Shown: positions 1,766-15,093, numbered from the stretch's first letter. The stretch: DNA of 17,352 nt from a virus (IMGVR_UViG_2728369554_000022:1-17352), one strand, 5' to 3'. Made by a program: numbers and translations. Notes: a model not told the origin generated them from the letters alone.

Positions 1766-2308
1766 TCAAGCCATTTTTTGAGCAAATGATTCTCGCATGG
1801 GAATGTATAGCGCATACTCAGCAACAGCCAACCAATTAGCAATTCGCTTTTCGCATGTGCTAAAACACCACTCTGGGTGTGCATCATTTAGCAATTCAGC
1901 CATTTTTCGCTTAGTCATCCCCCGCCCCTCATAGCGTTGCCGGAGAATACAAATCAATCCCGGATGATCCGCCATAACTTCGCCAATAACTCTGTCGATT
2001 ATTAATGCCTCTGAATCGGCACAATGTGCCAGCCAGCTCTTTTGCTTGCCGTTAATCATATCCCGCAAAAAAGCCTCAAGTTCAGGCTTGTCCAGACCTG
2101 CTTTTTTCATCCTCCGGAGCACCTCGTTAATTGCCGTTTTCGTCAATTTTTTGGATGCCAACAACTGATTGAACATATTTCCTGACCTGCCACCGCCAAT
2201 ATACGACCAGCGCCCCCACATACGCAGTTTGCCCTGAATCCAGACACTTTCCAGCGTGGCGAGACGAAGGTGTTCTCCGCTTTTTCCTGTATTCGTTGGG
2301 TAAATCAC
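1766..2308 (-). CDS. Late antiterminator Q candidate (Q82/QuuD-like), start uncertain
   Basis: GTG at 2308 overlaps the upstream stop (GTGA) with AAGGAGGG 7 nt upstream; alternative ATGs at 2221 and 2176. LRMWGRW motif recalls the LERWGAW motif of QuuD from memory. Last gene before the tRNA/lysis leader. Confidence 0.45.
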   Translation of the reverse strand: MIYPTNTGKSGEHLRLATLESVWIQGKLRMWGRWSYIGGGRSGNMFNQLLASKKLTKTAINEVLRRMKKAGLDKPELEAFLRDMINGKQKSWLAHCADSEALIIDRVIGEVMADHPGLICILRQRYEGRGMTKRKMAELLNDAHPEWCFSTCEKRIANWLAVAEYALYIPMRESFAQKMA

Positions 2309-2595
2309 AAATATCCCTCCTTTCTCCAGATTTCTTGTGTGCGAAAAACACCTTCTGCATGCATCAGGCGTAATTCTTCTTTGGTGTAATCGCTGGTTTT
2401 TAGCCGCCCGTCGATTAGATCGTGGCATGAGCTACAGGCAATCGCCGCCTGCATATCGTGTGGTTTTGTCGCTATTCCGCACGTTCCCGCCAGTCGGTAA
2501 TGCGCCAGCACAGACGTTTCCGGATCGTGATTGCAGTAGCCAGGAATTCTGACGGTGCACATCTGCCCCCGCGCCGCTTTACGTAAATCCACCAT
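2305..2595 (-). CDS. ybcO: YbcO-like putative nuclease (DUF1364 family), 96 aa
   Basis: ATG at 2595 overlaps upstream stop (TAATG). Pattern DLRKAARG..C.VRIPG.CN..PETSVLAH..CSSCHD matches recalled DLP12 YbcO; same length. Confidence 0.55.
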   Translation of the reverse strand: MVDLRKAARGQMCTVRIPGYCNHDPETSVLAHYRLAGTCGIATKPHDMQAAIACSSCHDLIDGRLKTSDYTKEELRLMHAEGVFRTQEIWRKEGYL

Positions 2596-3194
2596 TACGC
2601 AAACTCCAGCAGCTGCGCGGCCACATTTTCGACTTGTTCCGGAGAGGAAAATTTACGGAACAGAATCCAGTTCCACAGCACATTCAGAACAGATTTATAA
2701 ACCTGCTGAAACTCGGTTTCGTCCATATTCGCAAAAGCGATGGATTTCGCCCGACGCCCATGGCTACCGTCCGGATAAAAATGTTCGGTGTAAAATCCAG
2801 CCTGAATGGTTACCCACTCGCGAAAAGCCTCAAACGACTTTAGCAATGCCGTATCCCGGGTTCTGCGAGTCGCAACGGTGTTAAGGTATTGCTCTGCAGC
2901 ATCACTAAGGGCTGGCGTATGTTCCCGACCTACTGATTCGCACAGGAAATCAACGAAACCGGACACCAGTTCTCGTTCGCGAGGCGTGATCACCCCACCG
3001 ACCGGAGTCCAGTAATCGAATCCCAGTTGCAGGAGTTTGAAAAAACGCTTGTGGAATGCGTAGTTACGCACACGCTTAAAGTCTGCGTGTATCCACTCAC
3101 CTATTTTGATTTGATGCAAAAAATCGCAACTCTCCGGCGTCGCCGGGAGAAGTAATCCGGAAGAGGTTTGTTTGACCAGTTGTATATGCGCCAT
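2595..3194 (-). CDS. nin-region phage protein of unknown function (possibly DUF1367 family), 199 aa
   Basis: ATG at 3194 with GGAGA upstream; the track's 3206 start is TTG. Family assignment is a recollection only. Confidence 0.45.
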   Translation of the reverse strand: MAHIQLVKQTSSGLLLPATPESCDFLHQIKIGEWIHADFKRVRNYAFHKRFFKLLQLGFDYWTPVGGVITPRERELVSGFVDFLCESVGREHTPALSDAAEQYLNTVATRRTRDTALLKSFEAFREWVTIQAGFYTEHFYPDGSHGRRAKSIAFANMDETEFQQVYKSVLNVLWNWILFRKFSSPEQVENVAAQLLEFA

Positions 3195-3253
3195 TGCTGT
3201 CTCCAATGGCGCTGTAGGTTGCCAGTTGTTCAGGCTGGCTTACGAATTATAAC

Positions 3254-3647: not shown

Positions 3648-3803
3648 TTACTCCTCAGGTTCGTAAGCTGTGAAGACAGCGACCTCCGTCTGGCCGGTTC
3701 GGATTCGTACCTCGCAGAGGTCTTTCCTCGTTACCAGTGCCGTCACTATGACGGTTAAACAGATGACGATCAGGACGATTAACATCGCCTTTTGCTGCTT
3801 CAT
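3648..3803 (-). CDS. hokD: Hok/Gef-family type I toxin (51 aa)
   Basis: MKQQKAMLIVLIVICLTVIVTALVTRKDLCEVRIRTGQTEVAVFTAYEPEE, near-identical to recalled HokD/RelF; AAGGAGA upstream of ATG 3803. In-frame upstream ATG at 3860 gives a 70-aa mok-like extension. Confidence 0.8.
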   Translation of the reverse strand: MKQQKAMLIVLIVICLTVIVTALVTRKDLCEVRIRTGQTEVAVFTAYEPEE

Positions 3804-3975
3804 AGCCTGCTTCTCCTTGCCTTTCGGCACGTAAGAGGCTAACCTACATTTGTGAGACATAGATTGGGCCTCAGATTAATGTTAAGCGTCTTGCAGGACG
3901 CGTAATGTTAACTGGGGCTTTTCTCTATCTGCCTTTGGTGTTCATGCCCGAGGCAGATAGCCTCAAGCACCCGCA
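3804..3975. promoter_or_regulatory. hok leader with candidate antisense (Sok-like) region and structured elements
   Basis: Direct repeat TAATGTTAA (3876-3884, 3903-3911) flanking hairpin GCGTC-ttgcag-GACGC; 10-bp stem CTATCTGCCT/AGGCAGATAG at ~3937-3972. Sok promoter not defined. Confidence 0.35.
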
Positions 3976-4093: not shown

Positions 4094-4798
4094 TCATTGA
4101 TTCACCTCCTGCGGCGGTTCTGGTAGCGGCATCCAGTGAGTTGAGCTCTCTACTTCGACGCCGTCTTTGTCCACAAAAGCCATCTTATTCCCGCCACGAG
4201 TGGGGCAAAAAACCTTATCCCAGGAACCGGGGAATATATTCCCGAGATCATCGAGAAGAATCACATCGCAATATTCAGCAGGAACTGCATCACTACAGCT
4301 TATCCAGCCAGCCGGAGTTCCCGGAGAGCTGGTTGACGTTTCCGAGATTTCCCGAAAATTGTTGGTTGACGAATTCTTACTTTCCCGAAAGTTTTCGGCC
4401 TGAAGCATGGCGACACGGCAGGCGTTCCAGCCATCAGCATATGTTTCAGTTACACCGTCGAGATGGCAGGTAAGCAAATCCATTTCATCAGGCACTACCA
4501 TCGCTGGCGGCGCTGCGTAAAGCGGTGTTATTTCTGCCCGAAAATCACCTACTTTATGCAGTCGCACCCACCGTTCGATTTCTGCTTTGTCAGAATTCAT
4601 AAGGGTGAACGTATTACATTCATGGTTAATTTGCGTGAAGGTTGCCTTCCACGCCACCGGCTCTGCTTCCAGTGATGCCAGTGCAATTTTGAATAACTCG
4701 CCCTCTACCTGCGCCATCCCTGAATTTGGGTGGCATTTCGCAATCGCTATTTTTAATTTGGCTTCTTCGATTAATTGCTCTTTGGTTAATTCAGTCAT
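4094..4798 (-). CDS. Hypothetical phage protein (234 aa), C-terminus resembles DUF551
   Basis: ATG at 4798. C-terminal WIS.SD..P and THWMPLPEPP pattern recalls DUF551 from memory. Confidence 0.5.
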   Translation of the reverse strand: MTELTKEQLIEEAKLKIAIAKCHPNSGMAQVEGELFKIALASLEAEPVAWKATFTQINHECNTFTLMNSDKAEIERWVRLHKVGDFRAEITPLYAAPPAMVVPDEMDLLTCHLDGVTETYADGWNACRVAMLQAENFRESKNSSTNNFREISETSTSSPGTPAGWISCSDAVPAEYCDVILLDDLGNIFPGSWDKVFCPTRGGNKMAFVDKDGVEVESSTHWMPLPEPPQEVNQ

Positions 4799-4928: not shown

Positions 4929-5240
4929 TTATGCTTCAGTCTTATTTCTCAGCCATACACAAACAGGACCATCTTCAGTGTCATGAATGGAACCAATGAA
5001 CCAGCCTTCACCTTCCGGGCGCTCCGGTTTCCAGGAGGCAATATCGGGACCATCTGCGTCCAGATTAAAATCATCTTCATCCATAGTTCTGATGGTCCAT
5101 TGAAGATTATTTTCCTCCATCCATGCGTTAAACTCTTCCGTTGAAATATGTTCTCTACCATCACAGAATTTTTCATATTCAGGATGCGTCCAGCAGCCAT
5201 ATTCATCACGTACTACTGGTATTTCTTTAATTTCATTCAT
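4929..5240 (-). CDS. Highly acidic small phage protein (103 aa), function unknown
   Basis: ATG at 5240 with GGGAGA upstream; ~25% D+E, Trp-rich; stop overlaps next gene. Confidence 0.5.
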   Translation of the reverse strand: MNEIKEIPVVRDEYGCWTHPEYEKFCDGREHISTEEFNAWMEENNLQWTIRTMDEDDFNLDADGPDIASWKPERPEGEGWFIGSIHDTEDGPVCVWLRNKTEA

Positions 5241-5487
5241 TTCTGTTCTCCCACGTTTTCAGACTTTCACCACAGAACGGACAAAATGAAACCCGCACTG
5301 GTAATTTAGAAAATTCACCGGAACGCAACATCACCAAATCAGGGTCGCGAGTTAAATTCTCATTCCAGATTTTGTATATCAGCAGACCTTTTCGCGTCGT
5401 GTATTCAGCATCATGCTCAAGGGCTTTTGCCAGTACCGCACATGGTTCTATCTGATTGCTATTAACCTGACATTTTGATTCGCTCAC
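5233..5487 (-). CDS. Small Cys-containing protein (84 aa), possible zinc ribbon
   Basis: GTG at 5487 overlaps upstream TGA (GTGA) with AGGAGG upstream; Cys at 6, 16 and a CPFCG motif. Confidence 0.45.
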   Translation of the reverse strand: MSESKCQVNSNQIEPCAVLAKALEHDAEYTTRKGLLIYKIWNENLTRDPDLVMLRSGEFSKLPVRVSFCPFCGESLKTWENRNE

Positions 5488-5906
5488 AGCATCACCTCCT
5501 GAAATTCCCCCTGATAAAACGCCAGCACTCGCTGCATAACCTCACTCTTCCGGCACTCGCGACAGATTATGTTCTGACGCCTGTCGTAGCGGCGTATTTC
5601 TCCGTCAGGTAATGACCTGATAAGGTCCGGATCAACCACAGCCGTTTTCTTCACCTTTGCCCTTGAGAGTTTTTTGCGGGCGTTTTGCCAGTCCTTACGG
5701 GCCTGTTCAGAGGGAAATAACCCGTAGCCAGAGTTGTATACATCACCACTAGCAACCAGCTCTCTGGCGAGAACACTCATCAGATATCTTGTCGCACCTG
5801 TTTTCGCTTCCAGTTGCCGTAACGTCTCGCGCCCACTCCGGCGTACTAGCTCAACAACCTGCCCTTTAATTTTTTCTCGCTCTTCCTGTGTAAATACTTT
5901 TGCCAT
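5484..5906 (-). CDS. Hypothetical phage protein (141 aa) with winged-helix-like N-terminus
   Basis: ATG at 5906 with GGGGAGG upstream; track start at 5972 is TTG without RBS. Confidence 0.5.
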   Translation of the reverse strand: MAKVFTQEEREKIKGQVVELVRRSGRETLRQLEAKTGATRYLMSVLARELVASGDVYNSGYGLFPSEQARKDWQNARKKLSRAKVKKTAVVDPDLIRSLPDGEIRRYDRRQNIICRECRKSEVMQRVLAFYQGEFQEVML

Positions 5907-5922
5907 AAGCCCTCCCCAGGAA

Positions 5923-6684
5923 TCACTTTTCCGACACAATACGACTGGAGGAATCAACAATCTGTCGAACAATATCCCGGTGCTTATTCAGCTCCCGCAG
6001 CGCGGCGCAGACACGCTCCCACTTCTGGACATGACTTTTCGCCCGACGCAGTTCGCGGTTTGCCATATGCAGCGATGGTAAAACCAGGTCATCCGCTTGC
6101 GTTTCGGCGAACGGTGGCAACGACTGCACAATATCCGCCACAGTTTCTGTTTTAATATCTTCCTGTGTTGCAGCTTCCTGTACTGGTAACGCAACACCGG
6201 CTGGCTGAGGAAAGGCTTTACCATCAGTTTCCGCTACCGATGCCGCTTTCGGCTCTGCTGGTAAATTACCGCCCGGCATGCAGTAACGAAATTTACCGTT
6301 CTGATTAACACGAATCAGACGACCTTTGCTGATTGCCATTGCCAGCGTTGAAGCCACTTTGCGGGATGTTGTACCGAACAGCGTAGCCAGTTCATCCGCC
6401 GTTTGTGGTCCGCGTTGTTCAATCGTCGCGGTTAAATCGCACTCTGAGATTTTCGCTACTGTCGCCGTGCTGGTTTCTTCCGGCTGTTCTTCTGGCGCTG
6501 GCTGTTCCTGCTGAACGTTGTTATCAGCCACACGCCAGGTGTATGCGCTTTTATCAACGAAGCCAGCCTTTTTAAGTTCCCACAGCTCATTCAGCACTTC
6601 TTCACGACTGATATCAAGTCGCGCAGCCAGCTCTACCGACGTGGCTTTTCCCATCGCTTTCAGTGCGTCAAAAACAGTCTCCAT
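5923..6684 (-). CDS. Phage protein with two winged-helix-like segments (DUF1627-like), 253 aa
   Basis: ATG at 6684 with GGGAGG upstream; acidic linker; sits downstream of the DnaC-like gene. Confidence 0.5.
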
Positions 6685-6704: not shown

Positions 6705-7451
6705 TTACTTTTCAATACCTGGCTGACCAACATTCGGGCGCCAGCTCTCCCAGTTAAAATTCACCCAGCGCCCGCCGTTCATGGTCATGCGATCCATAAT
6801 CCGCTCGCCGAGCAATGTTTTCATGGCCTCATAGTTCAGGTTTGTCAGCATTCCCACGCTACGCATCGACGCTGTCCGTCGATCAATAATCTGGTGCAGT
6901 ACCACCTGCTCGTTTTTCGTCTCGCGCTGAATGCCAATTTCATCAAGAACCAGCAGATCCACTTCGCACAGTTCCCGCAAAAATTTTTCGCCTGACTGCC
7001 CGTCGTCATAGCTGGCGTGCAGGGCGCTCATAACATCAGCCACGGTAACCACAATCACTGTCTGACCGTCTTTCAGCAGGCGATTCCCGATAGCTGCCGC
7101 TAAGTGATTCTTCCCGGTACCAGGTTTTCCGCTGAACGCAAAATTTGTACACCCGGTCATCAGTTCATCGGCGATGGATTTCGCCTGGCTTAACGCGTAT
7201 CGCTGGCCGTCGTTCTGCACCTGGTAATTCGCAAACGAGCATTTACGGTGCAACGGCTGGATGCCTGAGCGATTCAGAATTTTTTCCACCCGCAACTGGC
7301 GATTCAGGCGGTTGATCTCCTCGCTACGTTTCTGGCCTTCAGCAAGTTGCCACTCGCGCCACTCCGCAACCGTTCTGAATGGGGCGGTTACATGTGGTGG
7401 GGTCAGTCTGCGGATACGCTCCAGAACGCCTCCTGTCGCAATATTTTTCAT
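6705..7451 (-). CDS. DnaC-like replicative helicase loader (AAA+ ATPase, YdaV-like), 248 aa
   Basis: Walker [16 protein letters not shown] and Walker B LLVLDEIG; position after the initiator gene. Confidence 0.85.
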
Positions 7452-7457
7452 GGTCTG

Positions 7458-8252
7458 TTACCCCCTGAAGCCTGGCGGGATCGCACTGTCCGGCAACGAG
7501 ACGGTGTTAACCTGTCGGAGCAACGTCTCAGGCCGAACACCTTTCGGCGCGAACAGGCCCTGGTATTCATTGGCGATGCTGTGTCGAATCACCTGCTCAG
7601 GTGTAAAACCCTGCTGACGGAATTTTTCCAGTTCCCGTATCGCCCCGTTAGCGCCCTGCTCCGTTCGAATCGGTTTTCGCAATGCCTGTCTGAACCGGAC
7701 CCACTCATGCCAGAGTGTTTCCGGCAACCAATCGGGCAGCTCAATAGCCTCCGGCTCGAATTTTTTAGACGCTCGTTTTTGGCGAGGGGGATTTAGGGGG
7801 AGATCAGTATTTAGATCTTCCTCTTCCTCTTCCTCTTCCTCTGGTAGCGCTTTTTGATCCGTTTGTGTAACGCCGGCAGCGTTACCTTTTCGTTTCAGTT
7901 CACGTATTTTTGTAACTCGCTCGTTTGTAACCGCCCGTTTTTTAGAGCTTTTTCCGTTATGGCGTTCAAAGTTAGGTAGAGAAAGCCCAACGTCATTTTC
8001 GACCAGCCATCCAACCTGAATTAACGCATCAGCAAAACCAGCCATAAAAGTGATGCGATCTATTGCACTTTTTGTAACGCCGCGAGCGTTACAATCTGCA
8101 TTACCGTCTATCATTTGTTGATCCGCCCATGCCCAGAAGCGAATAACCTTCCCTAATGCGGCATCTGGATCAATATTCAGAATCTCAGCAAGCCTGAATA
8201 TTTCCGGCTTATCCGGCGTAATAACCTCGAGCTTTATCCAGTTTGAAGCCAT
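7458..8252 (-). CDS. Replication initiator / replisome organiser (YdaU-like, lambda O analogue), 264 aa
   Basis: ATG at 8252 with AAGGTG upstream; poly-Glu linker; contains two of the three 19-bp palindromes; immediately precedes the DnaC-like gene. Confidence 0.5.
   Translation of the reverse strand: MASNWIKLEVITPDKPEIFRLAEILNIDPDAALGKVIRFWAWADQQMIDGNADCNARGVTKSAIDRITFMAGFADALIQVGWLVENDVGLSLPNFERHNGKSSKKRAVTNERVTKIRELKRKGNAAGVTQTDQKALPEEEEEEEEDLNTDLPLNPPRQKRASKKFEPEAIELPDWLPETLWHEWVRFRQALRKPIRTEQGANGAIRELEKFRQQGFTPEQVIRHSIANEYQGLFAPKGVRPETLLRQVNTVSLPDSAIPPGFRG
7817..7842. repeat. Hexanucleotide tandem repeat (CTCTTC)n encoding a poly-Glu tract
   Basis: cttcctcttcctcttcctcttcctct encodes EEEEEEEE on the minus strand. 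Confidence 0.8.
7867..7885. repeat. 19-bp palindrome GTAACGC-N5-GCGTTAC, copy 1 (inside initiator gene)
   Basis: gtaacgccggcagcgttac read directly. Confidence 0.8.
8074..8092. repeat. 19-bp palindrome GTAACGC-N5-GCGTTAC, copy 2 (inside initiator gene)
   Basis: gtaacgccgcgagcgttac, with flanking TT/AA extending the symmetry. Confidence 0.8.
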
Positions 8253-8329: not shown

Positions 8330-8752
8330 TCAATGCACTACGACAGAATCACCGGGCGACCCACCACCGCTGAAATGTGCTTTCCGGTAAACGGCCTGGA
8401 CTGCATCATCATGCGCATCAATTGCCGTACTCAACGCTTCCTGCGCCGCCAGTAATGCACGGCGTTCCAGGGTATCGAAGATGCAGAGTCGGTGACGCAG
8501 CTCGCGCGGAAGAATTGCCAGAACCGCAGGGATCAGTGTCTGAATTTTTTCCCTTTGCGCTTTCGTTTCACCTTTTAACCAACGGTGATAGATGTTCTGC
8601 TGATTATTCCAGTCCTTGCCTGGTACCAGGGGCAATTCGCCGCCCCCCTGGCGCAGATATTCTTCAGTAATTGCATTGGCTACCCATGCCTGCCCTTTTT
8701 CAGCGGCCAGGGCTAACAGCACTGATTCGATGTGCTCATGCCTGATTTTCAT
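8330..8752 (-). CDS. ydaT: YdaT-like protein (140 aa)
   Basis: ATG at 8752 with AGGAG upstream; length and position after the YdaS-like gene match the Rac ydaS-ydaT pair. Confidence 0.6.
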   Translation of the reverse strand: MKIRHEHIESVLLALAAEKGQAWVANAITEEYLRQGGGELPLVPGKDWNNQQNIYHRWLKGETKAQREKIQTLIPAVLAILPRELRHRLCIFDTLERRALLAAQEALSTAIDAHDDAVQAVYRKAHFSGGGSPGDSVVVH

Positions 8753-9011
8753 GAATCAACTCCTGTGCATTTTGTGTGTTAGCCTTACATCCAACAGGTA
8801 AACCATCGGTCGGATTCGGGTAGATATCAGGCCGGAGTTCATGAGGTGTAACCTCGAAATTCGTAGCCTCTGCGATACGCAATACCTTTTCAGGGCTTAA
8901 CTGACTACGTCCAGTAGCAACGAGGCTAATCATTGATTGCGAACAACCAGCCAGCGCGGCCAAACAAGACTGTCGTACACGATTTTTTTTCAAATATTCA
9001 TCTAATGTCAT
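8736..9011 (-). CDS. ydaS: YdaS-like Cro-type HTH regulator (91 aa)
   Basis: ATG at 9011 with AAGGTGA upstream (track start at 9038 is TTG); HTH-like segment; divergent from the repressor gene. Confidence 0.55.
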   Translation of the reverse strand: MTLDEYLKKNRVRQSCLAALAGCSQSMISLVATGRSQLSPEKVLRIAEATNFEVTPHELRPDIYPNPTDGLPVGCKANTQNAQELIHENQA

Positions 9012-9115
9012 AAGGGTCACCTTAGTAATGTTCGCCAAAATATTAACTATACTAATTTAAATGATCAATACTTATATCAGTTTGAGATTATGAGCTGTGT
9101 TCATAAGATGGTGGT
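9012..9115. promoter_or_regulatory. Divergent promoter/operator region between ydaS-like and racR-like genes
   Basis: 104-bp AT-rich intergenic region with palindrome TTATGA-gctgtgt-TCATAA (~9090-9108) and TGATCA (9064-9069). Confidence 0.4.
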
Positions 9116-9580
9116 ATGAGAAGAAAACGCGAAGAAATCGCATCGCCAGAAGCTACGCAGCGTCTACGCGGAATCTGGGATGCAAAAAAAAGAGAGCTCA
9201 AATTGACTCAGGAGCTTGCTGCCGAGCTAATGGGCTTTGAGACGCAATCTACGGTTAGCCACTATCTCAACGGAAAGGCTCCACTTAACACTGATGCGGC
9301 ATTAAAATTCGCAGTATTGCTAAGAGTTAAGCCTGAAGACTTGAGGCCTGATTTAGCTGATCTGATGAATTACGTCCGTTCCTCTGGAACTTATGACGAA
9401 AGTTTCGAAGGCGAAGGGTGGCGGATGGTTAACAAGCAACAAGCTGATTTACTGGATCTTTTTGATATCCTCCCCGAATCAGAAAAAGCAAAACTAATCG
9501 AAAGGCTTAAAGGCCAGAATGAACTCTACAAAGAAGCGTTTGAAAATATGCTGGCAGCTCAGAAACGCATAAAGAAATAG
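9116..9580 (+). CDS. racR: RacR-like prophage repressor (HTH), 154 aa
   Basis: HTH-like LTQELAAELMGFETQSTVSHYLNG; divergent from ydaS-like; followed by a strong terminator. Confidence 0.6.
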   Translation: MRRKREEIASPEATQRLRGIWDAKKRELKLTQELAAELMGFETQSTVSHYLNGKAPLNTDAALKFAVLLRVKPEDLRPDLADLMNYVRSSGTYDESFEGEGWRMVNKQQADLLDLFDILPESEKAKLIERLKGQNELYKEAFENMLAAQKRIKK

Positions 9581-10525: not shown

Positions 10526-10747
10526 ATGATTGCACATCACTTCGGAACTGAGGAAATACCACGTCAGTGTGTGACTCCTGGCGATTATGTTCTTCATGAA
10601 GGCCGGACATATATTGCCTCGGCAAACAATATTAAAAAGCGAAAACTTTATATTCGTAACCTGACCACAAAAACATGCATTACTGACTGCATGATTAAAG
10701 TCTTCCTCGGTCGTGATGGTTTACCTGTAAAGGCGGAGTCATGGTGA
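10526..10747 (+). CDS. kilR: KilR-like cell-division inhibitor (73 aa)
   Basis: ATG at 10526 with GGAGA upstream; size and synteny with Rac kilR; sequence recognised from memory. Confidence 0.7.
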
Positions 10748-10917
10748 TGACTAAGAAAATAAAATGTGCTTACCACCTTTGCAATAAAGAAGTTGAAAAA
10801 AGCAAAAGCATTACAAAACCACTTCATTTCATGCGTGGAGTTATCCCAACGACGGAAATGAAAAAATATTGTAGTGAAATATGTGCCGAAAAAGACCAGA
10901 TGGCACACGAACTTTAA
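10747..10917 (+). CDS. ydaE: YdaE-like Cys-rich small protein (56 aa)
   Basis: ATG overlaps kilR stop (TGATG); four Cys; not in ORF track as a separate ORF. Confidence 0.6.
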   Translation: MTKKIKCAYHLCNKEVEKSKSITKPLHFMRGVIPTTEMKKYCSEICAEKDQMAHEL

Positions 10918-11367: not shown

Positions 11368-14040
11368 ATGAGCACAAAACCACTCTTCCTGTTACGGAAA
11401 GCGAAAAAATCATCCGGTGAACCTGACGTCGTCTTGTGGGCAAGCGACGATTTTGAATCGACCTGTGCCACTCTGGACTACCTGATCGTTAAGTCAGGTA
11501 AAAAACTGAGCAGCTATTTTAAAGCTGTTGCCACGAATTTTCCTGTCGTTAATGACCTTCCCCCTGAAGGTGAGATCGATTTTACCTGGAGTGAACGCTA
11601 TCAACTCAGCAAAGACTCCATGACCTGGGAACTAAAACCGGGAGCAGCGCCAGACGACGTTCACCACCATGATAATGCTCAGGAAACCAAAGAACTGGCG
11701 GGGGGCCAGGAAGAAAACGCGCAGGCAGACGCCCACGGGGATTGCCAGGATTGCGAAGTCTCTGTAGCCACTTTGCGGTTCACACAGCGTCTTCTGCACA
11801 TTTTTACGTATGCGGCCGGGGATCGGAAATACCTGCATCATGCCACCCGTGAACAACGCGAACACATCACTGCTCTTGAGATGGATCAGGAAAACAGCTA
11901 TGTCCAGAATCTGCTGTTGGCCATACGCGGCATGGCAGAACCGACAACTCTGGATAATGCCGCCCTGCTCCGCCTGACTGATGCAATTAAGGCAGTTTTC
12001 TCTATCACGAAAAAACATCAGCCCTATGAATTTAAGAATTTCATTTCAGCCTGGCTGGATACCGAACACATTGATCGCGGTCTTCTGACAAAAGAATGGC
12101 GAAAAGGGAATCGTGTTTCACGCATCACTCGCACGGCTTCCGGTGCTAATGCTGGCGGCGGGAACCTCACCGATCGCGGCGAAGGTTTCGTCCACGATCT
12201 GACGTCACTGGCGCGCGATGTAGCCACTGGCGTACTGGCCCGTTCAATGGACGTGGACATTTATAACCTTCATCCTGCACACGCTAAACGCATTGAGGAA
12301 ATTATCGCTGAAAATAAACCGCCCTTTTCTGTTTTCCGCGACAAATTCATCACCATGCCTGGCGGGCTGGATTATTCCCGCGCCATCGTGGTTGCGTCCG
12401 TGAAAGAAGCACCAATTGGGATCGAGGTCATCCCCGCGCACGTCACTGAATATCTGAACAAAGTACTGACTGAAACCGATCATGCCAACCCTGATCCGGA
12501 AATCGTGGATATTGCCTGCGGTCGCTCCTCTGCCCCGATGCCGCAGCGTGTAACAGAAGAAGAAAAACAGGATGATGAAGAAAAACCGCAACCATCTTGC
12601 GCAATGGCAGATGAACAGGCAACGGCTGAAACAGTGGAACCGGATGCAACTGAACATCATCAGGACACGCAGCCGCTGGATGCTCAGTCACAGGTAAATT
12701 CTGTTGATGCGAAATATCAGAAACTGCGGGCAGAACTCCATGAAGCCCGGAAAAACATTCCGCCCAAAAATCCTGTCGATGCAGACAAATTACTGGCTGC
12801 CTATCGCGGAGAATTTGTTGCAGGGATTAGCGACCCGAATGATCCGAAATGGGTTAAAGGGATCCAGACCCGCGATTCTGTGTACCAGCATCAGCCAGAA
12901 ACGGAACAGAACGACCGAAAATCGGAACAAAACGGCCAAAATGCGCGACAAAATGAACCAGAAGCGCAACAGGAACTGGAAAAAGTCTGCAATGCCTGCG
13001 GTCAGTCTGGTGGAGATAACTGCCCTGATTGTGGCGCGGTGATGGGCGACACCACATATCAGGAAACCTTTAATGAAGAAAATCTGGATGAATCTCAGGA
13101 AAAAGATCCGGAGGAAATGGAAGGCCCTGAACATCCGCACAATGAGAATGCTGGCAGCGATCCGCATCGCGATTGCAGTGATGAAACTGGCGAAGTCGCA
13201 GATCCCGTAATCGCAGGAGACATAGAGCCTGGTATTTATTACGGAATTTCGAATGAGAATTACCACGCGGGTCCCGGTGTCAGTAAGTCTCAGCTCGACG
13301 ACATTGCTGATACTCCGGCGCTGTATTTGTGGCGTAAAAATGCCCCAGTGGACACCACAAAGACAAAAACGCTCGATTTAGGAACCGCTTTCCACTGCCG
13401 TGTACTTGAACCGGAAGAATTCAGTAACCGCTTTATCGTGGCACCTGAATTTAACCGCCGTACAACCGCCGGAAAAGAAGAAGAGAAAGCGTTTCTGATG
13501 GAATGCGCAAGCACAGGAAAAACGGTTATCACTGCCGAAGAAGGCCGGAAAATTGAACTCATGTATCAGAGCGTTATGGCTTTGCCGCTGGGTCAATGGC
13601 TTGTTGCAAGCGCCGGACACGCTGAATCATCAATTTACTGGGAAGATCCTGAAACAGGAATTTTGTGTCGGTGCCGTCCGGACAAAATTATTCCTGAATT
13701 TCACTGGATCATGGACGTGAAAACCACAGCGGATATTCAACGATTCAAAACGGCTTATTACGACTACCGCTATCACGTTCAGGATGCATTCTACAGTGAC
13801 GGTTATGAAGCACAGTTTGGTGTGCTGCCAACTTTCGTTTTTCTGGTTGCCAGCACAACTGTTGAATGCGGACGTTACCCGGTTGAGATTTTCATGATGG
13901 GCGAAGAAGCAAAACTGGCAGGCCAGCAGGAATATCACCGCAATCTGAGGACCCTGGCTGACTGCCTGAATACCGATGAATGGCCAGCTATTAAAACGTT
14001 ATCACTGCCCCGCTGGGCTAAGGAGTATGCAAATGACTAA
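11368..14040 (+). CDS. recE: RecE exodeoxyribonuclease VIII (890 aa)
   Basis: N-terminus [41 protein letters not shown] recognised as RecE; long acidic central region; C-terminal nuclease domain. Confidence 0.9.
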
Positions 14041-14842
14041 GCAACCACCTATCGCAAAAGCCGATCTGCAAAAAACCCAGGGAAACCGTGCACCAGCAGC
14101 AGTAAAAAATAACGACGTGATCAGCTTTATTAATCAGCCATCAATGAAAGAGCAACTGGCAGCAGCTCTCCCACGCCATATGACGGCTGAACGAATGATA
14201 CGTATCGCCACTACAGAAATTCGTAAGGTTCCGGCGCTAGGAAACTGTGACACCATGAGTTTTGTCAGTGCGATCGTTCAGTGTTCACAGCTCGGCCTTG
14301 AGCCAGGTAGCGCCCTCGGCCACGCATATTTACTGCCTTTTGGTAATAAAAACGAAAAGAGCGGTAAAAAGAACGTCCAGCTAATCATTGGTTATCGCGG
14401 CATGATTGATCTGGCTCGCCGTTCTGGTCAAATCGCCAGCCTGTCAGCCCGTGTTGTCCGTGAAGGTGACGTGTTTAGTTTTGAATTTGGCCTTGATGAA
14501 AAGTTAATACACCGCCCGGGAGAAAACGAAGATGCACCAGTGACCCACGTCTATGCTGTCGCAAGACTGAAAGACGGAGGGACTCAGTTTGAGGTTATGA
14601 CACGCAAACAGATTGAGATTGTACGCAACCAGAGTAAAGCAGGTAATAACGGGCCGTGGGTAACTCACTGGGAAGAAATGGCAAAAAAAACGGCTATTCG
14701 TCGCCTGTTCAAATATCTGCCCGTATCAATTGAGATCCAGCGTGCAGTATCAATGGATGAAAAGGAACCACTGACAATCGATCCTGCAGATTCCTCTGTA
14801 TTAACCGGAGAATACAGTGTAATCGATAATTCAGAGGAATAA
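14033..14842 (+). CDS. recT: RecT single-strand annealing recombinase (269 aa)
   Basis: ATG at 14033 overlaps recE 3' end, AAGGAG upstream; [16 protein letters not shown] recognised. Confidence 0.9.
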
Positions 14843-14849
14843 TTCAGCC

Positions 14850-14868
14850 TGGCGGTGTAATGCACCGC
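14850..14868 (+). other. GC-rich hairpin between recT and ralR (possible attenuator)
   Basis: GGCGGTG-taat-GCACCGCC; T-run begins ~12 nt downstream, so not a canonical terminator. Confidence 0.3.
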
Positions 14869-14898
14869 CAACTTGAAATATTTTTTATGAGAAAAATT

Positions 14899-15093
14899 AT
14901 GAGATATGACAATGTTAAACCATGTCCATTTTGTGGTTGTCCATCAGTAACGGTGAAAGCCATTTCAGGATATTACCGAGCGAAGTGTAACGGATGCGAA
15001 TCCCGAACCGGTTATGGTGGAAGTGAAAAAGAAGCACTCGAAAGATGGAATAAACGAACCACTGAAAATATTAATGGAGGCTTTCATGTATAA
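14899..15093 (+). CDS. ralR: RalR/Lar restriction-alleviation protein (64 aa)
   Basis: MRYDNVKPCPFCGCPSVTVKAISGYYRAKCNGCESR..., zinc-ribbon-like, recognised as Rac Lar. Confidence 0.8.
   Translation: MRYDNVKPCPFCGCPSVTVKAISGYYRAKCNGCESRTGYGGSEKEALERWNKRTTENINGGFHV

Follow-up and report, generated by a model that had tools for sequence, protein, structure and literature searches.

What does a small and very acidic protein do in an Escherichia coli prophage? The question is raised by a gene in the viral sequence IMGVR_UViG_2728369554_000022:1-17352, a stretch of 17,352 nucleotides (nt) that was analysed as a whole and is called the window below. The gene occupies positions 4929..5240 on the minus strand and encodes a protein of 103 amino acids, MNEIKEIPVVRDEYGCWTHPEYEKFCDGREHISTEEFNAWMEENNLQWTIRTMDEDDFNLDADGPDIASWKPERPEGEGWFIGSIHDTEDGPVCVWLRNKTEA. 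A preliminary description, made from the sequence of the window, had proposed a candidate DNA mimic or anti-defence factor whose composition recalls the DNA-mimic anti-restriction proteins Ocr and ArdA. Judging by profile similarity, the protein is a member of the phage protein family phrog_1372, represented here by a stand-alone copy consisting of the bare domain. The reading that we favour, with a probability of about 40%, is that of a protein without catalytic activity which attaches to a basic host protein and blocks it, in the service of counter-defence or host takeover.

The open reading frame (ORF) is a real gene under purifying selection. The identical protein is recorded on 299 contigs, the ratio of nonsynonymous to synonymous substitution rates (dN/dS) is 0.06-0.15 in comparisons with relatives that are 82-93% identical, and the translation matches phrog_1372; these observations show that the coding sequence, which was taken from the list of ORFs starting with ATG, did not arise by chance. 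The start codon is at 5238-5240 and the stop codon at 4929-4931, as read from the sequence on the minus strand; no strand had been named in the preliminary description. The good ribosome-binding site noted there is present: the Shine-Dalgarno-like hexamer GGGAGA is found at 5247-5252 on the minus strand, 6 nt before the ATG. The stop of an upstream gene of 84 codons (5233..5487, minus strand) overlaps the start of the acidic gene by 8 nt, ATGAATGA (5233..5240, minus strand, from the sequence and the ORF coordinates), with the upstream TGA at 5233-5235 inside this octamer. The overlap itself is thus observed, and from it we infer translational coupling of the acidic gene to the upstream gene, which had been stated earlier without qualification.

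The composition was also described correctly. The protein contains 26 aspartates and glutamates, nine lysines and arginines, six tryptophans, three cysteines and three histidines, in agreement with the earlier count of about 26 acidic against about nine basic residues and several tryptophans. Its computed isoelectric point is 4.24, and its computed charge at pH 7 is about -17. The net charge per residue is -0.165, against -0.086 for the runner-up, which makes it the most acidic product of the 24 window ORFs compared.

The match to the phrog_1372 profile has E = 1.2e-53 (182.6 bits) and covers residues 1-102, aligned with profile positions 55-158 of 194. No match was found in Pfam (no family at E <= 1), in NCBIfam or among the PADLOC-DB models of defence components (none at E <= 0.1). 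Hence the statement in the preliminary description that no family is recognised holds for these three collections and fails for PHROGs. No enzyme family matches the protein in the Pfam and NCBIfam searches. The function of phrog_1372 is unassigned, so that membership names the gene without explaining what it does, and the annotation of every named family copy is "hypothetical protein". As a sequence the protein is already catalogued and thus not new. Many members of the family have additional N- or C-terminal domains, whereas the window copy is the domain alone.

The family is a large one: among 1.84 billion representative proteins, a search with its profile yielded 922 clusters at 50% identity (E <= 1e-3). 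In tblastn searches homologues were found in 46 phage records, with Escherichia, Klebsiella, Erwinia, Yersinia (PY54), Pectobacterium, Pseudomonas, Burkholderia (phi1026b gp46), Vibrio, Acinetobacter and Nitrincola among the hosts and records, and on 2,046 plasmids. Conjugative plasmids account for 1,764 of these, Klebsiella for 1,499 and Escherichia for 161; one of the Klebsiella plasmid homologues is WP_004152383.1. The family thus spans phages and plasmids of beta- and gamma-proteobacteria. It occurs in many E. coli prophages, including those of Shiga-toxin-producing strains. The gene is missing from closely related prophages and from E. coli IncFII plasmids.

Strong acidity is a conserved trait of the family. 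The net charge of the domain has a median of -15 and ranges from -21 to -2 (261 domains). Eleven positions, D12, E30, E36, E47, D54, D56, D66, E78, D87, E89 and D90, carry an acidic residue in 62-92% of the sequences in a set of 154 non-redundant domains. The conservation of individual residues is highest at R11, D12, G15, W17, H19, P20, W40, W70, P72, P75, G77, G79, W80, F81, S84, I85, H86, D87, T88, E89, D90, G91, P92, C94, W96 and R98. The domain has three conserved motifs, R-D-x-x-G-x-W-x-H-P, W-x-P-x-x-P-x-G-x-G-W-F and S-I-H-D-T-E-D-G-P-x-C-x-W-x-R, all of which are present in the window protein; the motif columns are 80-100% conserved in the same set of 154 domains. Conservation peaks in residues 80-99, WFIGSIHDTEDGPVCVWLRN (4944..5003, minus strand), which, according to column conservation and the structural model, would form a beta-hairpin with the acidic turn D87-T88-E89-D90-G91-P92. 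Residues 53-66, MDEDDFNLDADGPD (5043..5084, minus strand), are a predicted acidic loop, delineated from the alignments and the model; its length and sequence vary across the family and its acidity is kept. Members with otherwise intact motifs can have A, W or S in place of C94 and Q, G, F or Y in place of H86. Because such substitutions are found in many members, a metal or catalytic site composed of H19, H86 and C94 was ruled out, and any Cys/His metal site seems unlikely from the alignments.

The protein is confidently predicted to be an alpha/beta domain of about 100 residues. The AlphaFold2 model, built on an alignment of 41 sequences, has a mean predicted local distance difference test score (pLDDT) of 84.9 and a predicted template modelling score of 0.75. 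It contains helices at residues 20-26 and 34-43 and strands at 46-52, 80-88 and 91-99; the confidence is lowest around the acidic loop (pLDDT 72-73, residues 51-70). The predicted fold has no counterpart among solved structures, and no DNA mimic, sponge or anti-CRISPR protein was matched there. A confident similarity to an unrelated fold, which would have spoken against the original proposal, was looked for in the same structures and was not found. Sequence searches against PDB, both with the single sequence and with the profile of 41 sequences, returned noise only, with no meaningful E-value. An alignment with an Agenet domain in these searches was not significant (E = 0.7). The top PDB matches are due to Strep-tag II (WSHPQFEK) of recombinant constructs, which resembles CWTHPEYEK of the protein; the segment G-C-W-T-H-P-E-Y-E-K (residues 15-24, about 5169-5198, minus strand) mimics the tag, and this is an artefact and not homology.

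The gene moves as a single module without a fixed neighbour. Eighty viral contigs carry copies that are at least 82% identical to the window protein, and there the gene is preceded by 10 unrelated types of neighbours and followed by 16. An 84-amino-acid gene of phrog_4030, the same as upstream in the window, precedes it in 30 of the 80 close loci; downstream, DUF551 is found in 29 and a Ser/Thr phosphatase in 11. A functional pairing with the 84-amino-acid protein, which has a CPFCG motif, was ruled out, since it is a neighbour in only 30 of the 80 close relatives and is not Lar-like by Pfam; the phrog_4030 gene is local context and no conserved partner. The 577 proteins that flank the gene at 149 diverse loci form 317 clusters, and the largest of these, DUF2303, spans 18 loci. 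Among the Pfam matches listed for the neighbour clusters, DNA methylases occur in five clusters (C5 in three, Dam in one, N6/N4 in one), and integrases, RecT, RdgC and the Rv2179c-like exonuclease also recur. In individual loci the gene directly upstream encodes a fused C5 and Dam methyltransferase or a DndB-like or ParB-like protein.

The position of the gene in mobile elements varies, and it is always found among early or accessory genes. In the window it sits in the nin-like, non-essential, delayed-early accessory region of the prophage. In phage mEp213 the homologue immediately follows N in the leftward early operon, which in lambda is the place of ral. Prophages of Klebsiella and Serratia carry it in the accessory region between the repressor and the integrase, among genes for YfdP, DUF2303, ParB-like, Ead/Ea22, Rv2179c-like exonuclease and dATP/dGTP pyrophosphohydrolase proteins. 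In the P1-like phage D6 it adjoins a phosphatase gene. F-type plasmids show two arrangements. In the first, the homologue lies between traW and traU, in some cases with its stop codon overlapping the traU start by 4 nt, and is accompanied by several other unannotated small genes (loci L089, 4986-5309; L090, 4507-5333; L108, L111 and L113-L116). One of these plasmids, Erwinia persicina pEP1 (L090), has two adjacent paralogues. In the second, found in IncFII(K) plasmids, the homologue follows finO and is next to repA.

Domain fusions offer a further view of the family. Among 140 full-domain representatives, the domain stands alone in 65, is extended at the N-terminus in 35 and at the C-terminus in 40, and occurs as two tandem copies in one (P0139). 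Tandem members and members with a fused coiled coil would predict a dimer or multimer. The domain is fused to Lar_restr_allev in three representatives (P0133 and P0177 confirmed individually), to a Tad2-like anti-Thoeris domain in one (P0171), to an Rv2179c-like exonuclease in two (P0201 confirmed individually), to a DHH/DHHA1 phosphoesterase in one (P0178) and to KTSC in one.

The favoured reading, a blocker of a basic host protein, would combine these features as follows; the mode of binding, the inhibitory role and the class of the target are what we infer. The gene is carried as non-essential cargo in the early operons of temperate phages and also on F-type conjugative plasmids. In the window prophage, transcription from the early rightward promoter would reach it once the replication genes have been passed. 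The protein would have no catalytic activity and would act stoichiometrically. Its conserved negative surface, together with the invariant acidic hairpin (H-D-T-E-D-G-P), may attach to a basic host protein, probably one that binds nucleic acids, and thereby block it, and the role would be that of a counter-defence or host-takeover inhibitor. A stronger version of this proposal makes the protein the prototype of a new fold class, a nucleic-acid-mimicking or otherwise electrostatic inhibitor common to temperate phages and F-type plasmids, including the IncFII(K) resistance plasmids of K. pneumoniae, with the acidic hairpin neutralising a conserved proteobacterial defence or DNA-processing enzyme. 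In this extended form the proposal is unlikely.

Several observations weigh against the proposal of a host-protein blocker. A full-text literature search found no publication mentioning the phrog_1372 family or its members. The gene lies outside the plasmid leading region and outside the first-entering end of the phage genome, the sites at which Ocr and ArdA act. Ocr, ArdA and ArdB/KlcA are not among the neighbour families (25 of 47 listed). The argument from context is one of guilt by association, as such regions hold accessory genes of many kinds. Beyond the acidic pattern, the conserved core is rich in tryptophan, arginine and histidine (R11, W17, H19, W70, W80, W96, R98), and this core and the strong purifying selection would be just as compatible with a pocket for a ligand or with a role in structure alone.

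Of the competing readings, the one that survives best assigns the protein to the DNA metabolism of the element or to the physiology of the host, with no defence target; it could modulate recombination or replication proteins, nucleoid proteins such as H-NS or, like PsiB, the SOS response. The frequent neighbours point in this direction, namely DUF2303, the largest cluster, in 18 of the 149 loci, and also RecT, RdgC and exonucleases. So does the lineage in the F-type tra operon, which, with its 4-nt overlap with traU, would be expressed in donors, and so does the presence of hha nearby on plasmid pCROD1. The strong purifying selection is also unlike the fast evolution often seen in genes involved in an arms race. 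However, no partner gene of any kind is conserved in the 80 close and 149 diverse loci, the gene is dispensable, as related prophages and E. coli IncFII plasmids do without it, and no family of DNA metabolism was recognised in Pfam or NCBIfam. On balance this role is unlikely.

The strict form of the original proposal, a DNA mimic whose acidic surface imitates the phosphate backbone and fills the DNA groove of a type I restriction-modification enzyme (or of BREX and similar systems), fares less well and is quite unlikely. The likeness to Ocr and ArdA is real in several respects, as all are small, very acidic, carried by phages and conjugative plasmids, and apparently non-enzymatic. DNA mimics have surfaces dense in aspartate and glutamate, conserved across homologues; in the acidic family the high density of these residues and its conservation are seen at the level of the sequence. 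The three fusions with a Lar-like domain, the mEp213 homologue right after N and the orphan methyltransferases among the neighbours fit this reading too, and the tandem copy P0139 and the adjacent paralogues of L090 hint at function as a dimer. However, neither Pfam at E <= 1 nor the PDB chains revealed a resemblance to Ocr (PF08684) in sequence or profile, and the all-helical elongated fold of Ocr, which forms a dimer mimicking bent B-DNA, is not that of the acidic protein. Neither sequence or profile similarity to ArdA (PF07275) nor its elongated three-domain fold was found. The plasmid homologues are not located in the leading region, as is typical of ArdA; they are situated after finO next to repA or within the tra operon between traW and traU. 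In the window the gene is delayed-early and not among the first to be expressed. Finally, two arginines and five tryptophans are invariant, which is unusual for a pure mimic of phosphates.

The relation to Lar bears on the same question. Lar/RalR proteins (PF14354) are found in the same type of prophages and in the same pool of accessory genes, and a Lar-like domain is the one fused to three family representatives. However, Lar is a zinc-ribbon domain, whereas the acidic protein has no such ribbon and no match to PF14354, and the window prophage has a Lar homologue of its own, a separate gene at 14860-15093. Hence of the preliminary claim, the conserved acidity, the mobile-element cargo, the Lar-like and Tad2-like fusions and the methyltransferase neighbours stand in its favour, and the lack of sequence or fold similarity, the delayed-early nin location, the separate Lar gene and the Trp/Arg/His core stand against it. 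The phrase "DNA mimic like Ocr/ArdA" describes a resemblance in composition only; a binder that acts in anti-defence or host takeover can reasonably be hypothesised.

Two anti-CRISPR proteins were compared as well. AcrIE10 and AcrIE9, which belong to plasmids and phages of Klebsiella, E. coli and Pseudomonas, are small proteins encoded on similar Klebsiella conjugative plasmids and enterobacterial mobile elements (PMC11317147). Identity with AcrIE10 was rejected, as there is no match in sequence or fold. For identity with AcrIE9 no support was found in the PDB comparison, the presence of an AcrIE9 chain in the PDB copy used being unconfirmed.

The conserved core could instead indicate a sponge for small molecules similar to Tad1, Tad2 and Acb2, in which a pocket of Trp, His, Arg, Ser and Thr residues sequesters an immune signalling nucleotide. 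These sponges are likewise small stand-alone phage proteins, one member of the family is fused to a Tad2-like domain, and the conserved cluster of aromatic and basic residues could form a pocket. The set R11, W17, T18, H19, S84, H86, T88, W96 and R98 looks more like a ligand site than like the surface of a mimic, and the strong purifying selection also speaks for this reading. Partners and neighbours lean to nucleotide handling, including the Tad2-like domain, the Rv2179c-like 3'-5' exoribonuclease, DHH/DHHA1 and dATP/dGTP pyrophosphohydrolase; however, such enzymes are also plain common residents of accessory regions. Moreover, a net charge of about -15 disfavours anionic nucleotides as ligands, no fold or sequence match to the solved sponges was found, and H86, a member of the putative site, is replaceable. 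Thus we regard a sponge as decidedly unlikely.

A different lead came from plasmids. In Klebsiella IncFII(K) plasmids and in pCROD1 of Citrobacter rodentium, the first 4 nt of the homologue are shared with the end of a DUF2726 gene (L087, 8336-9291, in the K. pneumoniae IncFII(K) plasmid NZ_CP122583.1; L088, 4315-5306, in pCROD1). The DUF2726 protein of both loci bears an N-terminal hydrophobic segment. In the Klebsiella plasmid the homologue is followed by a nuclease of the phospholipase D family, and in pCROD1 hha is near the homologue. Known nuclease inhibitors are small and acidic. DUF2726 has been assigned to the DNases of the PD-(D/E)XK, or restriction endonuclease, fold (PMC3424549, PMC3710099), and this class, in combination with the overlap, suggested a nuclease and its inhibitor. 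The acidic protein would then be the inhibitory or immunity partner of the DUF2726 nuclease, similar to barstar, the colicin Im proteins or NuiA, and the phage copies would be orphan immunity genes. Two more plasmid matches, from K. michiganensis and K. pneumoniae, also have a DUF2726 gene overlapping the homologue. However, DUF2726 was found at just two of 121 loci (L087 and L088), and it is present on at least 5,000 plasmids, at least 2,603 of them from Escherichia, against 161 Escherichia plasmids with the acidic protein. In E. coli IncFII plasmids, DUF2726 is directly followed by the repA regulators with no partner gene, and thus the nuclease does not need the acidic protein. The window has no DUF2726 gene. 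Adjacency to DUF2726 is therefore not obligate, being seen in IncFII(K)-type plasmids and pCROD1 only, and the pairing is largely rejected as highly improbable.

The last alternative, a chance ORF or a decaying remnant without function, could appeal to the mosaic prophage region with pseudogenes in relatives and to the frameshifted or split family copies L096 and L103, but it is effectively refuted by the conservation data, namely dN/dS of 0.06-0.15, hundreds of identical copies and the broad span of the family, along with the confident fold prediction.

The surroundings of the gene are those of a mosaic Rac-like, lambdoid E. coli prophage. In no complete E. coli genome does the match reach 80% of the window. 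The plus strand encodes a cI-like repressor (9116-9580), RecE (11368-14040) and RecT (13976-14842). The Lar/RalR-type restriction-alleviation homologue mentioned above (14860-15093, plus strand; Pfam PF14354, E = 5e-14) directly follows recT, and beyond it on the same strand are listed the genes for DUF1187, an excisionase and an integrase. Between the repressor and recE, an ORF encodes a Cys-rich protein of 58 amino acids (10741-10917, plus strand) that matches the Rtr1/RPAP2 zinc-finger family (E = 7e-8) with 33.1 bits against a cutoff of 33 bits; the match is marginal and the family is eukaryotic. With this ORF the leftward early operon probably encodes a small protein that binds zinc.

The early rightward operon runs on the minus strand. 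It contains a cro-like gene (8736-9038), a YdaT-like gene in the position of cII (8330-8752; YdaT_toxin PF06254, E = 9e-11), an O-like gene (7458-8252), a DnaC/P-like gene (6705-7451), a DUF1627 gene (5923-6684) and a DUF977/Ren-like gene (5484-5972). The YdaT_toxin gene recalls the ydaS/ydaT module of the Rac prophage. Next is the 84-amino-acid upstream gene of phrog_4030 (5233..5487, PHROG match 1.8e-38), whose product has the CPFCG motif at its C-terminus and has no Pfam match above threshold; its only Pfam matches, such as DUF6980 (E = 0.076), fall well short of it, and none is to Lar. The acidic gene is followed by a DUF551 gene (4094-4798, minus strand).

The nin-like region is mosaic, and pseudogenes are found there in relatives. 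On the minus strand it contains an ORF for a toxin of the Hok/Gef family (3648-3860; PF01848, E = 1e-22), the counterpart of which in a related E. coli prophage is annotated as hokD. Two ORFs of 203 and 96 amino acids (2595-3206 and 2305-2595, minus strand) are putatively NinB-like and NinG-like, as read from their translations. They are followed on this strand by a gene for a DUF1133/Q-like protein (1766-2428) and, downstream of it, by tRNA-Gly(TCC) and tRNA-Thr(TGT) at 895-967 and 971-1046. A tRNA pair downstream of a Q-like gene is an arrangement common in lambdoid and Stx-type prophages.

For now the gene is better called a well-characterised candidate than a discovery. To a specialist, a nin region that encodes an acidic hypothetical protein holds no surprise, and if the family is a housekeeping accessory of mobile elements, the finding is an ordinary one. 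As to the type of function, the family would at most add a new family and fold to the known small inhibitors carried on mobile elements. On the other hand, the family is broad, it occurs on some 2,000 plasmids, the IncFII(K) resistance plasmids of Klebsiella among them, and its fold is unmatched, so that it merits a place in a screen. Should the family indeed act as an inhibitor in counter-defence or host takeover, it would be new to this class and, with 922 clusters and about 2,000 plasmids, very widespread; with its target defined, it would provide a new tool protein of novel fold. The plasmid carriers are mostly conjugative Klebsiella plasmids, of the type that spreads carbapenem resistance, and an inhibitor of this kind could help to explain how these plasmids and phages become established in defended hosts.
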